Below are positions 30,001 to 36,000 of a DNA stretch of 56,862 bases, one piece after another. The stretch spans positions 1-56,862 of the forward strand of contig JBLKOU010000003.1 of NCBI GenBank assembly GCA_047603125.1, read 5' to 3'. The position numbers are program-made. Position 1 is the first letter of the stretch, and each line of letters begins with the position of its first letter. The stretch comes from Candidatus Woesearchaeota archaeon (GTDB taxonomy: Archaea > Nanobdellota > Nanobdellia > Woesearchaeales > DATGWN01).

Positions 30001-33000
30001 TGTTTTCCCTCGAATCACAAATGAACCACGGGACAAAGATTCTCCTGCTTGTGCTTGTTTGCTTACTTGTTCAGGCAATACACTAAAGACATCAATACTA
30101 GAGAGCTTCATCTGCCATGCACGAGAATAGACAATAGTCAATGTTGCAACTTCTTGACGTACTTGCTCATCAATTTGCTGACTGTCAGCTTTTATTACAA
30201 AAAATGGAGAACCAGCCATATCTGTGTGAAAAACAAGATCACCTGTTTGCGTGTGTTTTTTTATGACAATTTCATTTGTTGTTGCATCTCGCCCGCCTAT
30301 AACAAGCATTCCATTTGAGGCATAAAACCAGCGAAATTTTTCATACCACTCGCGCTTTCGTTTTTTTTCCACAACTTGTTGTATTTGTTCTTTTTGCTGC
30401 TCTTTTTTTTCTAATACGCTGAGTTTTTGCTGTGTTTTTGCAAGAATTTTTTGAATACTCTCAATTTTTTTCTTTGATTTCTTCGCTTTTTCAAAATAGA
30501 TTGATGCGTTTTCATGAACTGACTTTCGCATATCAAGAGTGAATTTCATATCAAAAGAAAAGAAGTAATTGTTTAAAAATTATTGGATTTGACGTCCTTC
30601 TTGCTGTGTAAACTCAAACACTGCATTTTTTGCATCTTCATATGTTTCACGAATTGGTTGTATTGCCTGTTGGAGTATTTTTTGCGCATGCTTAAAATCC
30701 TCAGTCACAATACGAAAAACATAATTTCCGCCGCCGCCATATGTCACATGCAAATTTTTTGTATCAGAATTCATTGCCTGCGTAACAGCTTCACGAACTT
30801 TGAATAATCCATCACCTGCAAAAGAAATAAGTTTTAGTTTTGCAACTATTTCTACTTTTGGCGGTTTAATTCGAGATTTTACAAGCTCTAAAAATAATTT
30901 GTGCTTGGCTGGCGAGAGTCCGCTTTTTTTTAAATCATAGATTCCCTGCACATATTCACGGCAAGCCTGATAAATGAATTCATAGTCTTTTGCAATTGCT
31001 TCATGCATTTGCGTAATGACTGCTTTCATATCTAATTTTTGTTCTTTGCAAAATAATTCTAATAATTTCTCAACAGATTGTTCTTGCTTAATATGATTAC
31101 TAAATTGCATTCGTAAACTTTCGCCAACTCGACGAAGCGATACATCAATATGACCGCGCCGTTCATTGTAAGAGAGAACTTTACAAATAATTTGTTTTCC
31201 TTCTTTTACATAATCGCGTAAATTTCGAATACGGCCAGGAGAAACTTCCGAGATGTGTAAAATTGCTGAACGATTCCCGTATTGATTCAGTACTACAAAA
31301 ACAGAATGTGACATAATCTTGGTCACAGTACATAACACAATTTCTCCCTCACTTGGGGAACCTGGTTTTTGATAAATCATAATGATTGTTAGGAAACGAT
31401 TTCAAGTGTCTTTGCAATCATTTTTACTGTGCTCGCTTGCGGTTTTGCTAAAACTTCGCCACAAACTGTACATGAAACAGTAGTTGCTGCTTTTGTGTAA
31501 ATAATTTGTTCATTATTACACTTTGGACACTGAACCTTGACAAATTTTGCTTGAGGTTGTTTGATTTTCATTGAATACACCTTATATATCTAGACAAATT
31601 CCAGCTTTTTTGCTCGAATTGGGCTTTTTTTTCCAAATGTTTTTTTCGTTTCTTGACACTCAAAGCGAATATCCACTTTTTTTGAACGCTTTTTCCCAGT
31701 CATTTTAAACTTATTTACGGGTGGACGTGAACCATATCTGCCTAAATTTCCTGTTCCTTTTCCAAAACCAGTTCGAACTTTTTGAAATTTACCCATGGGT
31801 GCTGCAGTTCCGGCCGTACGCTTTTTTGCTTGAACGACTTTTACATCTACATGTTTTCGCAAAAACGGGTTATACCGTCGTATAATTTTTGGAATTTTCA
31901 TAGGAAAACGGATTTTGGACGCCTTTATAAATATTTCGCACGAAAAGACTCTCCGTAAGTCAAAATGCAAAAAATCTACCCATTACTGGGGCTCAGAAAC
32001 CGCCTTCTCTTCTTGAATAGGCTCGATTCTCTTTGATTCTAATAAAATAGACGCAAGATCCTTTGGAAGCTCTATTTGTTGATTCTGTGAAAATGGACCA
32101 TAGGTTTCCATATCAGGCCCGACAAGTTCAGGAATGTCTTCTAGGCATACGTACATTGTGCTCTCATTTGGAGAATTTCCAGATTCTTTACCTTTGGATT
32201 GCTCGCTGGTTTGCTCTTTTTCTAGCTCATCGATAGTCTGACCACTTGGGTGGCGTAATTCAAAGATGTTTTCAATTATTGTCGCTCGTTGTTGTGTGCA
32301 GATATCAACTAATTGTTGAAAAAAAGAGCGCTCTTGATCCAAAAGATTACTCGTATCTATAACATTTGAGCGCGTTCGGCTCTTACTGAGTGCAAGATGA
32401 ATTATCTTTTTCTCTCGTCGGTCATACAGCTCTTCAATGAGTTTTTTTGCATTTTTGAGCTGGAGCACCACATCATCATACTGGGACGACCCAAACAAGG
32501 AATCTGTTTGCTTTGCCTTATCCAGAGCGACTTTTTTAGATTGTAAATAGAATATGATATCTGCAAAAAATGATTCAGGAAGCTTTTGTAAACTTGCATC
32601 TGTTGCTTCTGTTCGAACATAATCGAAAAGCTTCTCATATGTAATATTGGTCTGTTTCGTACTCATTTCCCCCACTGTAATGAAATGGCTTGCATTTATA
32701 TAAATATATGTTTATGAGAATCCAAAAACAGGTATTTTCACGTTCTCATTCAATAGTTTTAAAAACTTGCTGTTACTCTCCTCAGGATATGTTTACTATA
32801 TTTCTTTCAAAGGCACAAAAAGCGCATATTCAGGTGTATGAGAAGCTTGTAAGCTCAACCTATGTTAAGCAAATCCGAGCTCTCCTTCGAGCAAATAAAG
32901 TTGGCGTTGTATATCAAACAACAAAATTAGGATTTGTTAGTGACCAAAAATATCCACAACTGCATAAAATATCCGAGCATGTCAGTGACCAAGAAATAGA

Positions 33001-36000
33001 TGAAATCAATTCTGCAACAAAACAAGCCGTCTACTCACAATTATATAAAGAATTTGCACCACAAGCACCCAACTATATTGCACGCATTATAGCACCAGAA
33101 ATTACACACCTTGATGGCTTAAAAGAACTCCTCACACTGCAACTATTTAGTGAACAAGCACATATTTTAATAATCGGAGATCATGGTGCAGACCATGTCC
33201 AAATCGTTCGCCAGAGCACACAACTTCATCCACAAGGGCTTTTTTGCCCGGTCAAAGCACTCTACAAAGAAAAACAACAGCTCAAGGCACTCTTGACAAA
33301 TGCTGATGAGGGAGTTGTTACCATTATTGATTATGAACTTCTCGATGCTCAAGATCGAAAAACAATTGAGCAGACCATTACTCGCCAATATATTCAAAAG
33401 GGACCACATCGCCATGATGTGCGAGCGCAATTATTAGGGGTGAGTTCTCCAGTAGGAAAACAATTTGTTGGCTCCATGCTCTCGACACTCAAAAACCAAT
33501 TGCCAAAACATCGGGAGTTTTTTTCTTTGCAAGTGTGTATTCGACTCAAAACAAAGCATCCAAATTCGTTCGAACCTAAAACAGTCTCAATTGAGCAAAA
33601 AGAATTTATTCGAGACTATATTTTATATGCACAAAGTACAATCGTCGACTTTCCTGCACCGCTACAAGAAACGGTGGTTAAGTGGGTTTCCCAATATGAT
33701 GATTCTCAAAAGATTATTGAAAAGCATCCCCTGCTTGCAAAAACGATTATCTTATTAGCAAAAGGACGCGCACGAACGGAATTGCGAAAAGTGGTGACAA
33801 AAAAAGATGTTGAACAAGTTTGTGCACTTTTAGAGACAATTTTTGAATAGGTTGTGTGTTTTTAAAAACTAAATTTTTAACCGAATTTTATTAATTAATG
33901 GATTTTGTAAGGAATGAATTTTATTTTTACAAAATAATACGAATGAAAGTAACTCGTCATAATTAAAATCAACAGGTATATTCTTCAAATAATATTGATT
34001 ATCTATCCGTAGCTGCTTATCTACTTTTAATGTATTATACGCATCAGGCGGAAAAATCTCAAATTCTTTTAAATATCGAATTAATTCAATAGTACAGTCA
34101 TGAATTTCACACTTAATACCTATTTTCATACATATCGCATATACGGCAAAATATTGCGCATAGTACTTTTTTATGGCTTTCCACATGTTCGAATTTTCAG
34201 CATCATCTAAAGAAGAAAGAGTTTCTTGAGCACTTTTAATATATTCATTCGCTAAGTTATTATTTGGGTCAATCAATGCCAGACCTTGTTTTTGCTTTTT
34301 ACACCAGTTTATAGTAACCATTTAACAACCTGTTCAACACTTGAAACAATTATGTGTTTTTTTTGTATTTCCTGTTTTAACGGTAACTGTATTTCTTTTA
34401 AATTATTTACTCTCAAAAAATGTATTTTTTTTCGGTATTTTTTTTCTAATGATGTAATTTCAATTTTTTCTAAGCAAAGTATGTCAATATCCCGGGCTTT
34501 TGAAAAATCAATAACCGTTGAACCAAAAAGCAGTAATGGCTGATCAGTTAACTTATGTAAATCAGATATTAATTCTTTTAGAAGGGGATTCTTTGTTTTT
34601 TTAATCAAAAATTCTTTTTCGGCAACCGATAAATAATCTATTAGTAATGAAAACTCACTATTTATTTCATACAATGTTAGCCTTCCTTTTTGGCTCATTT
34701 TTAAAAAGCCTTCCTGTGCGAAGGCGTTGAGAATATTTCTCACAGTAGTATGGTTCTCACCGACTTGTCTTGAAATATCTTGTAAATGTAAAGCATCGCG
34801 TGTGAATAAAAACGGTTCTACATAATTCCATTTTGTCATTTTTTTGACCATATTGTCAAATATGTGACGATATTATATAAATGTTTTTACTCTACGAGAT
34901 TCTCGTACCTACGAAAAATCAAACGAGTAGCTGTGCAAACCCTTTCAGAGGAGCACTACCTTCTTTAACAAGATTACCATTTTTTAAAACAAAAACATAG
35001 TCTGCAATTTGCATTGCTTGCTTAATATTTTGCTCAACGAGAATTATTGTTTTTTCTTTTGCTAATGCTCGTAAGTGTAACTTATCAAAACGAAGAAGAG
35101 CTGCTAAGACTCTTTTTTAGTATCCATCAATAGGTAAGAGAAGAACTTTTTTACATAATTGTCTATTTTTATAGACAGGCGTCTAAATTTTTAGACAGTT
35201 GAGCTATTGAAGCCCTTCATTATCGAAAATAGTAAATCTAATTGTATCTGGACAAAGTGTCTTAATTCAGGACGACTTTAAGAAGATATAAATAAAAGTT
35301 ACTCAAAAAATACATAGCAAAAAAAGACTTTCCTGCTCTTCTTGGACCAATTATGACTTTAATAAGATCATTATCTAAGACTAAGTGAGACGCTCTTTCT
35401 ACATATTTTTCTTGTAATTTGCTATTTTTTTCTCTCTTTTGGAGCAAAAGTATGTCTTTTATTTTGTCTAGCATAATGTATTGTAATGTAAAATAGTTTG
35501 AAAAAAATTGCAATATATTACAAATTTAACGCAAAATTTTATATTCCTACATCCAAAATACGTCTCATGAAGGGATTTGTGCTTCATAACTGCTTTATAA
35601 GAATCTTCCAGAATAACTTTCCCATTACCCATCAAAACGACTTTGTCAGCAATAGCGGCAAAATCTAAGTCGTGCTCAATCAATACAATAGTCTCTCCTT
35701 CATCTCTAAGAGAAACAAGCAAATAAGAAATCTTCTTTCTCATACTGGGTGTAACACCAGCAATCGGTTCATCAAGTAGCAACACTGCATGCGGTTGCAA
35801 TACAGCGCGTGCTATTTCGACCAATCGCTTTTGCCCATAAGAAAGATCCCTACAAAGCACATCTTTTTTATTGAGTAACCCAATCTTTTTCAGAATGGAA
35901 GTAACATCATACTTTTTCACAGAAAAAGAGCGAAAAAAAGAAAAGGGATGCTCAGCCAAAGACAAATTCTCAAAAACAGTCATATTATCAAATAAAGACG

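Follow-up and report, generated by a model that had tools for sequence, protein, structure and literature searches.

What does an MCM paralogue do once all of its catalytic ATPase residues have gone, and does the gene beside it tell us? The question is raised by a 353-residue protein, P0001 (gene g00460), encoded in the window, a 56,862-nucleotide stretch of a Candidatus Woesearchaeota archaeon. A preliminary description had read P0001 as a dead MCM paralogue kept next to GINS, and had suggested for it a structural or regulatory role in the replicative helicase.

The gene and its MCM fold with decayed motifs

The 353-aa reading frame and the head-to-head arrangement with GINS51 were both recovered as previously described. 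The locus contains the following features:

32789..33850, plus strand: motor-dead short MCM paralogue P0001 (g00460), identified by its open reading frame, MCM fold and canonical-MCM profile match
32758..32765, plus strand: TATA-like box, 31 nt ahead of the P0001 ATG (32789), at the genome-wide pattern peak
32697..32704, minus strand: second, separate TATA-like box, 29 nt ahead of the GTG of GINS51, from the same pattern search
31983..32675, minus strand: GINS51 gene (g00459), the divergent neighbour (Gins51_C E 9.7e-12, Sld5 E 4.6e-4)
30580..31970, minus strand: L44e and aIF2-alpha genes (Pfam), the usual downstream partners of GINS51
33869..34851, minus strand: HEPN-like and HTH-bearing gene pair of low GC, abutting the 3' end of P0001 (Pfam HEPN E 0.017, weak; HTH E 1.5e-4)

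A contig of another run covers 31730-33001 with zero letter differences, and the head-to-head layout is therefore not an assembly error. Four DNA sequencing runs gave zero variants within the P0001 frame, so that no pN/pS could be derived from the reads. The TATA-like pattern peaks at -32 to -28 across the genome (624 long ORFs), and P0001 is likely to be expressed from its own TATA box. The HEPN-like/HTH pair, with a GC content of 0.28-0.29 against 0.36 for the genome, is probably a later insertion.

Fold and profile comparison identified an MCM-type AAA+ domain followed by the MCM lid. The Pfam matches lie below the cut-off, as had been noted (MCM, E 9.9e-5; MCM_lid, E 1.1e-4), and the PDB sequence match to MCM3 was reproduced at E 0.0089. 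The AlphaFold2 model from 67 sequences was confident (pLDDT 93.1, pTM 0.91), and its residues 79-353 superimposed on 6mii_B by VIA-align (Z 29.1, 271 aligned, rmsd 2.8), in agreement with the earlier model. By profile, P0001 aligns colinearly with a relative's canonical MCM over residues 272-590 of the latter (probability 99.9). Canonical archaeal MCM, represented by S. solfataricus 6mii and by the intein-bearing copy on contig C54 of the same genome, thus has the AAA+ fold and lid in common with P0001. Unlike it, P0001 lacks the N-tier (subdomain A, Zn finger and OB fold) and, stopping after the lid, the C-terminal winged helix. About 100 residues of its own precede the AAA+ domain; the N-tier is indeed replaced by a cap, but one comprising some 70 aa and a further helix of 35 aa rather than the 60 aa first estimated. 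All ATPase motifs and both pore loops are degraded, in contrast to canonical MCM:

32789..33088, plus strand: N-terminal cap, residues 1-100, with two helices, a beta-hairpin and a long helix carrying a near-invariant Asn74 (AlphaFold2 secondary structure)
33176..33199, plus strand: decayed Walker A GDHGADHV, Lys replaced by His136 (alignment)
33323..33337, plus strand: decayed Walker B IIDYE, lacking an in-register catalytic Glu (alignment)
33437..33451, plus strand: decayed sensor 1 GVSSP, Asn replaced by Ser220 (alignment)
33518..33532, plus strand: arginine-finger site FFS-LQ, finger residue deleted (alignment)
33602..33841, plus strand: MCM lid, residues 272-351, sensor-2 Arg replaced by Leu315 (Pfam MCM_lid, alignment)

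The decayed Walker A, Walker B and sensor 1 had been assigned correctly, but not the arginine finger: the family motif LLTRF aligns to FFS-L, where the finger position is deleted, and not to HREFF. None of the seven catalytic residues of Walker A, Walker B, sensor 1, arginine finger and sensor 2 is in register. Compared with the intact short-MCM family, the two DNA-binding loops are shorter, H2I by 8 residues and PS1-beta by 4, and the helix preceding the lid is also lost or shortened. With every ATPase motif gone, ATP hydrolysis would not be expected, in line with the original claim.

Repeated loss of the ATPase under selection

P0001 displays the traits of a short-MCM family, namely its own N-cap, AAA+ domain and lid, a length of about 350-430 aa and full-length similarity: 19 of 60 relatives match it over most of its length (best E 1.7e-36). 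The family is present in 81 of the 251 genomes of this Woesearchaeota-type order and in 30 of 39 of a sister order. No member was detected in the other 170 of the first order, which suggests that the gene is dispensable there. P0001 is the sole member in its genome and coexists with a separate canonical MCM. A protein-database search with P0001 returned one relative only, leaving it without a close pair for dN/dS. Same-genus copies cluster in the gene tree, and the family is single-copy among housekeeping genes. A literature search, thin in coverage of subscription journals, found no description of it.

Several alternatives could be rejected. Decay of a redundant duplicate does not fit, as each genome with a dead copy has one cap match. 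A viral origin was discarded on the PHROG and BFVD matches, which were full-length helicases or distant ATPases, although the Atlas lists viral MCM-like clusters by features. Replacement of Orc1/Cdc6, or a fixed position at the origin, was likewise dismissed: cdc6 is present in 5/5 genomes and does not adjoin the gene.

The copies are bimodal. All seven catalytic residues are kept in 65 of 76 genome copies, and three or fewer in the remaining 11 (G254, which ends at a contig edge, is outside this count; G171, with an in-frame stop, was left out of trees and motif counts, and G649 is not a member). Among these 11 dead copies, the catalytic columns retain the Walker B Asp in 1, the Glu in 1, the finger Arg in 2 and the sensor-2 Arg in none; at the structural columns, the cap Asn is kept in 11/11 and five further positions in 10-11. 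A wider set of 35 non-redundant dead copies retains the Walker A Lys in 18, the finger Arg in 13 and the sensor-2 Arg in 9.

We used RpoA' alone as the species marker; a concatenated tree was set aside because EF-2 was unreliable as a marker, owing to one divergent group and a faulty G008 frame. On the RpoA' tree of 27 member-bearing genomes, 6 state changes are needed, or 7 if loss is irreversible, and bootstrap trees required 6-7, with 0 of 200 needing a single change. The ATPase thus appears to have died about seven times on the species tree. In the gene tree the 11 dead copies fall together (SH-aLRT 84 on a branch of 0.1, with long branches flagged), a grouping that allows for one origin plus transfer; P0001 has the longest branch (2.32).

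Dead copies persist across genera (G000 with G007; G038 with G160). The nearest pair of P0001 has dS 1.8 and dN 0.91, and in the dead pairs, this one included, frames are open and pS exceeds pN. Simulated neutral drift to 30-45% identity produced 12-15 stops and never zero (300 runs each). In the sister order, the ATPase core has been deleted outright, leaving proteins of 201-324 aa, and these core-deleted forms match the intact family with an HHalign probability of 99.8. Their dN/dS was 0.11-0.13 across 7 pairs with the 256-aa form and 0.06 for a 201-aa pair, next to 0.09 and 0.27 for motif-dead pairs and 0.04 for an intact pair. Motif loss and purifying selection together support the view, put forward initially, of a probably non-catalytic MCM paralogue without N-tier that is kept by selection.

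The cap and its place among MCM relatives

Measured against the intact profile, the core loses much of its similarity (0.63 to 0.27) and the cap little (0.22 to 0.18); the cap Asn is retained in 34 of the 35 non-redundant dead copies. The cap also occurs in 30 of 39 sister-order genomes and in 9/9 high-quality ones, of which only 7 have an intact ATPase, although for genomes outside the order the case for retention is in part circular, their members having been detected by means of a cap profile. A net charge of +8 falls on the first 70 profile positions. The intact-copy model has a helix-helix-helix-hairpin order, shared by the dead-copy model, which fits a winged helix of three helices and a beta-hairpin; the best Atlas structure row (TM 0.51/0.58) stayed under the bar for naming. 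Structure, HHalign and PDB profile searches gave no significant match to any known domain (best E against PDB, 0.29). Descent of the cap from the MCM winged helix, subdomain A or OB fold gained no support from HHalign, with probabilities of at most 5% (0.6% for the MCM winged helix). No second cap-bearing protein was found in the genome, and a weak search among five longer matches found no fusion of the cap to other domains. A membrane-targeting N-terminal helix was rejected, P0001 not exceeding the controls.

Among known systems, the Methanopyrus kandleri MCM homologue 3f8t headed a wide fold search (Z 26.7, 258 aligned, rmsd 4.5), level with other MCMs. This protein is reportedly naturally inactive. 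It differs in that 459 residues are solved, its N-terminal region fails to align with the cap, and it represents a single lineage with no series from active to core-deleted forms. The eukaryotic MCMDC2 and MCM-BP are MCM-derived and work without ATP hydrolysis, keeping N-tier parts such as the OB fold; in the short-MCM family, by contrast, the N-tier was the first part to go and the retained cap is unrelated to it, and the P0001 model has no space for such an OB fold. The isolated AAA+ core of S. solfataricus MCM is an ATPase and helicase (PMC1807962), likely the state of intact short-MCM members, but it is an engineered fragment, and P0001 lacks the residues it needs. Additional "shell" MCM copies in archaea derive from mobile elements (PMC3914693), with MCM1 and MCM2 of T. 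kodakarensis (PMC3239210) as examples. Shell copies resemble the short MCM as a non-essential second MCM alongside the core copy; however, they are full-length ATPases, whereas the short-MCM family is single-copy among housekeeping genes.

GINS51 adjacency and competing functions

GINS51 typically clusters with L44e/aIF2-alpha (PMC2643942), and one of the two adjoins it in many of the 30 GINS loci across the order. The preliminary description held that the decayed copies are the ones beside GINS, but no more than 4 of the 38 dead or core-deleted copies examined adjoin GINS51, plus one intact copy, and GINS51 was absent from the fetched flanks of the other 34. Overall it lies near 5 of 114 member loci, and the five genomes form one clade (RpoA' 100/100) in which one copy is intact; conserved linkage across independent lineages was not found in the 114 loci. 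It is near 1 of 80 named intact loci and on another contig in 15 of 20 member-bearing relatives. A dead helicase part acting via GINS is accordingly quite improbable, despite the linkage in four dead copies, which survived an inversion in P0001's genome (the genes are divergent there and co-directional in G003, G007 and G008), the PCNA-like, PolB and S3Ae genes adjoining other members, and a few structure alignments of P0001 that reach from the cap into the start of MCM subdomain A (8q67_A, 6xtx_4, 6raw_2, 6u0m_2). That extension recurs in one row only of the intact model, and the HHalign probability of cap versus subdomain A is 0.85%. Moreover, P0001 and GINS51 have separate TATA boxes, and in the eukaryotic CMG it is the MCM N-terminal domains, missing here, that GINS contacts (PMC5538431). 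The adjacency is best seen as an inherited rearrangement of one subclade, a matter of local gene order, and does not support the proposed helicase subunit. An MCM-BP-like regulator (loader, unloader or inhibitor), independent of GINS and docking on or inserting into the canonical MCM ring by lid and linker helices, is also unlikely. P0001 keeps these helices, the dead-copy genomes checked have a canonical MCM with intact motifs, and the N-half of S. solfataricus MCM can associate in trans with the isolated AAA+ core (PMC1807962). Canonical MCM is universal, however, so co-occurrence says little; moreover, the 35 non-redundant dead copies show no cis/trans asymmetry, 14 members have deleted the ring-forming core, and no examined member locus adjoins the canonical mcm gene.

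Could P0001 have no real job, as a dispensable gene drifting to loss under weak selection only? The lack of a family member in the 170 genomes, the several small deletions in P0001 and the roughly twofold faster divergence of dead pairs at matched RpoA' identity (dN 0.64-0.91 vs 0.38-0.52) would be consistent with this, but an open frame, normal codon-position GC, a TATA box in place, the persistence of dead copies across genera and dN/dS of 0.06-0.27 in dead and core-deleted relatives make it very unlikely. We consider it similarly far-fetched that P0001 has nothing to do with replication and instead serves the OapABC/ArvABC small-GTPase system as a membrane-linked factor in vesicle formation or division. 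ArvA is known in DPANN (PMC10927574), 17 of 78 order loci have oapABC downstream in the same orientation, and OapA occurs in 26 of 80 named loci. Yet oap genes adjoin none of the examined dead copies, oapABC is on a different contig in P0001's genome, and the N-terminal hydrophobic moment of P0001 (0.60) is near that of GINS51 (0.56) and canonical MCM (0.53), under the 0.86 of OapA.

We narrowly favor reading P0001 as a pseudo-ATPase maintained for a job done by its cap and helical scaffold, which probably bind DNA or a DNA-processing partner. The ancestor would have been an MCM-derived AAA+ ring motor with its own cap instead of the N-tier, equipped with all cis and trans ATPase residues, the PS1-beta lysine and a short H2I loop. 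If the selected job was located in the cap, the following long helix and the lid-side helical scaffold, the motor would have been optional and lost repeatedly, first by motif decay, as in P0001, and elsewhere through removal of the entire P-loop core. P0001 would then act passively, by binding. Its ligand is most likely DNA or a DNA-processing partner, as suggested by the basic cap, the helix-helix-helix-hairpin order in the intact model, the MCM ancestry and recurring HerA, Mre11, PCNA and PolB neighbours (HerA in 16 of 78 order loci and Mre11 in 9, both minorities). More speculatively, and with considerable doubt on our part, the cap may be the working part and the MCM motor a disposable attachment, the cap-scaffold regulating canonical MCM or the DPANN replisome, as MCM-BP or Cdt1 do in eukaryotes; this would make it an undescribed archaeal chromosome or replication factor, and one family would then show every stage from ring ATPase via pseudo-ATPase to a core-less scaffold of about 200 residues, repeated in many lineages.

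With the tempting GINS association reduced to a local one, a single family remains that grades from a probably active MCM-type motor through a pseudo-enzyme to a core-less scaffold, with selection apparently still acting at each step. The series directs experiments to one specific 100-residue domain, and it suggests that reduced DPANN genomes retain a non-catalytic offshoot of MCM.

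The mini-MCM of the window and its motor motifs

The structural model of P0001, the mini-MCM of the window (AF2 with 67 sequences, pLDDT 93.1, pTM 0.91), matched best to MCM motor tiers (6mii_B, Z 29.1, 271 residues aligned, rmsd 2.8), in agreement with its preliminary description as a motor tier without an N-tier. Profile alignment matched P0001 only to residues 272-590 of a relative's canonical MCM, so it lacks both the N-tier and the winged helix. An in-register alignment placed His136 at the Walker A lysine, IIDYE at Walker B, Ser220 at sensor 1 and Leu315 at sensor 2; H2I, PS1-beta and the pre-lid helix are all shortened. 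The arginine finger, formerly read as HREFF, is deleted; LLTRF pairs with FFS-L. Judged from these motifs, P0001 appears to have lost ATP hydrolysis. Apart from its fold, P0001 lacks the features tested for MCM membership, and it would work unlike an MCM. The genes concerned are:

27547-29040, minus strand: 497-aa gene without a Pfam or NCBIfam match
31983-32675, divergent from the P0001 ORF: GINS51 (Gins51_C, E 9.7e-12)
32789-33850, plus strand: P0001 ORF, 353 aa
33869-34851, minus strand: pair of genes, one HEPN-like and one HTH-bearing, at the 3' end of the mini-MCM, GC 0.28-0.29

A contig of another public run spans 31730-33001 and others span the remaining ORF, with zero letter differences. 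The two divergent genes have separate TATA-like boxes, at -31 (P0001) and -29 (GINS51), and this pattern peaks genome-wide at -32 to -28 (624 long ORFs). GINS51 is followed by L44e and then aIF2-alpha, an old archaeal cluster (PMC2643942). The HEPN-like/HTH pair is probably an inserted toxin-antitoxin-type module. The 497-aa gene comes after the GINS51-L44e-aIF2-alpha-NFACT block in the window and in two relatives, G003 and G005. The window's genome (1.12 Mb, 100% complete) carries its intein-bearing canonical MCM on a different contig; the frame (G000:C54:1315-6321) encodes 1669 aa, about 1000 residues above the relatives' length, with intein-like insertions in the ATPase domain.

A family of short MCMs and its cap

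Dead MCM relatives are already known, namely M. kandleri 3f8t, MCMDC2 and MCM-BP. We found no description of the short-MCM family in the literature searched, and MCM goes unmentioned in the main text of a 2026 preprint on complete genomes of Nanobdellota. Extra MCM copies from mobile elements are described in PMC3914693 and PMC3239210.

A frame of 384-432 aa matching most of P0001 is present in 19 of 60 relatives. In 251 genomes of the order (the only tallies that count the unpublished G213 and G129), the full-length profile listed 77 short members, and a profile of the cap, the roughly 100 N-terminal residues in place of the N-tier (1-100 in P0001), found 81, with members in 59 of the 190 high-quality genomes. 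Named relatives are mostly titled Woesearchaeota or Nanoarchaeota, and many 'uncultured Methanosarcinales', which we take as a deposit label. All seven catalytic residues are kept in 65 of 76 full-length genome copies and at most three in the other 11; the cap profile brought three additional dead copies. Intact members are probably ring ATPases gripping a polymer, since they retain the PS1-beta lysine, a short H2I loop and both of the arginines that act in trans. For S. solfataricus MCM, the AAA+ core in isolation has both ATPase and helicase activity (PMC1807962), and unwinding requires both loops, H2I and PS1-beta (PMC4619765). One otherwise intact member (G171:C40:7096-8265) has an in-frame TAG near the lid and is a pseudogene or a sequence error.

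Searching with the cap alone matched 52 of 401 genomes of the class; in one sister order, 30 of 39 genomes (9 of 9 high-quality) matched. These 30 members comprise seven intact, nine motif-dead and 14 with the P-loop core mostly deleted in frame (201-324 aa, one ending at a contig end). The 256-aa form aligned with the intact family at a probability of 99.8 through the cap, long helix, first core elements and lid. That intact, dead and core-deleted short MCMs are, on sequence comparison, one family is a new finding. The cap is basic (median net charge +4 to +9; +8 in P0001), and 34 of the 35 non-redundant dead copies retain its Asn74. The 11 dead copies within the order were found through the whole protein and the members outside it through the cap, so the cap retention of the latter is partly built in. 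Structure, HHalign and profile searches gave no match of the cap to named families.

In an RpoA' tree built from 27 genomes with members, the dead state needs six changes, or seven without reversion; bootstrap trees gave six to seven, and 0 of 200 gave one. These genomes were picked so that the 11 dead copies known at that point would be covered, so the count is no rate. Speaking against repeated loss, the gene tree unites these 11 copies (SH-aLRT 84, branch 0.1, long branches flagged), a grouping that we read as probable long-branch attraction. Placed one at a time, the copies of G003, G007 and G008 fell beside that of the intact G005 (0.97, 0.88 and 0.82), and that of the window's genome stayed unresolved (0.45). 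Several dead copies share gene context with intact ones. EF-2 of G078, G004, G003 and G006 (L253-L256) forms one group (100/100) in conflict with the RpoA' tree, which suggests transfer or a paralogue.

Gene neighbours

The GINS51 profile was run on 114 member loci and one non-member locus, with flanks of 4-5 kb where contigs allowed; each side had 2 kb or more in 53 of the 78 order loci, 10 of the 11 dead ones included. It matched five member loci, those of the window's genome, G003, G007 and G008 (dead) and of G005, where one gene separates the intact mini-MCM from GINS51. These five genomes form a single clade (100/100) with G005 nested within it (93/75) on the RpoA' tree; the earlier claim that the decayed copies are those beside GINS is not confirmed. 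An upstream block of GAPDH, methyltransferase and ZPR1 is common to G003, G005 and G007, which points to one rearrangement that put the mini-MCM before GINS51; in the window's genome, the mini-MCM is inverted and the block lies on another contig. GINS51 is on a contig other than the member's in 15 of 20 member-bearing relatives and nearby in 1 of 80 named intact loci. The link between mini-MCM and GINS, newly delimited here, is only local.

Commoner contexts of the family are an HTH/PIN-like pair (22 and 21 of 78), oapABC (17), HerA (16) and Mre11 (9). A conserved pair located before HerA consists of a 187-aa protein (weak UPF0175 match) and a PIN-like-looking 234-aa protein without a Pfam match, and is the family's commonest divergent neighbour. 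In G051, G069, G176 and G241, the intact mini-MCM has as its divergent neighbour a stand-alone MCM-type winged-helix gene of about 90 aa, and PolB lies on the far side of that gene. The product of the gene matched the canonical MCM winged helix at 98% (HHalign), and the window's genome yielded no separate copy. Of the 33 loci outside the main set, sister-order loci included, 15 have a hydrophobic ORF of about 84 aa, with no Pfam match, upstream of the family gene. In two further families, a dead copy of 352 aa and an intact one come after an S3Ae-like gene, recognised from sequence by eye without a family scan. A second Orc1/Cdc6-like gene, divergent and under the family cut-off, was seen in four of the five genomes checked (G075, G087, G105 and G441) and not in that of the window. 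Examples are:

L030:5208-5768 and L087:2708-3409: the 187-aa/234-aa pair
L099:5413-5685: stand-alone winged-helix gene of G051
L352:512-763: hydrophobic ORF of about 84 aa

Selection and possible roles

In the 11 dead copies, structural columns stay and catalytic columns are gone. dN was 0.64-0.91 for dead pairs (RpoA' identity 0.78-0.81) versus 0.38-0.52 for intact pairs (0.73-0.80), pS exceeded pN in every dead and intact pair compared, and simulated neutral drift to 30-45% identity produced 12-15 stops, with open frames in 0 of 300 runs per setting. Together, these results suggest that constraint on the dead copies is relaxed about twofold and not removed, and we consider it very unlikely that the gene of P0001 is drifting to loss. 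dN/dS was 0.11-0.13 for the 256-aa form (seven non-independent pairs), 0.06 for one 201-aa pair, 0.09 and 0.27 for two motif-dead pairs, and 0.04 for one intact pair.

The preliminary description saw in P0001 a GINS-linked part of the replicative helicase. In its favour, the linkage outlasted an inversion in the window's genome, and the cap extended onto MCM subdomain A in four rows of one fold search. However, the intact model gave only one such row, HHalign scored the cap against subdomain A at 0.85%, and the contacts of GINS in the CMG of eukaryotes are with N-terminal domains, those of Mcm3 and Mcm5 (PMC5538431), a part that P0001 lacks; we regard this role as improbable. An MCM-BP-like regulator of the canonical MCM ring is a doubtful candidate, because the 35 non-redundant dead copies lack cis/trans asymmetry. 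With oapABC among the neighbours, a part in the Oap/Arv membrane system (PMC10927574) seems as remote as drift to loss.

Most likely, P0001 would be a passive binding factor, whose working surface would be formed by the cap, the long helix and the lid-side helices. Charge, element order, ancestry and neighbours make DNA or a DNA-processing partner our best guess for its ligand. The motor may be useful in some lineages and would have been dropped in the window's protein. The new picture from sequence is of a motor that appears to die repeatedly, as far as outright deletion, under purifying selection.
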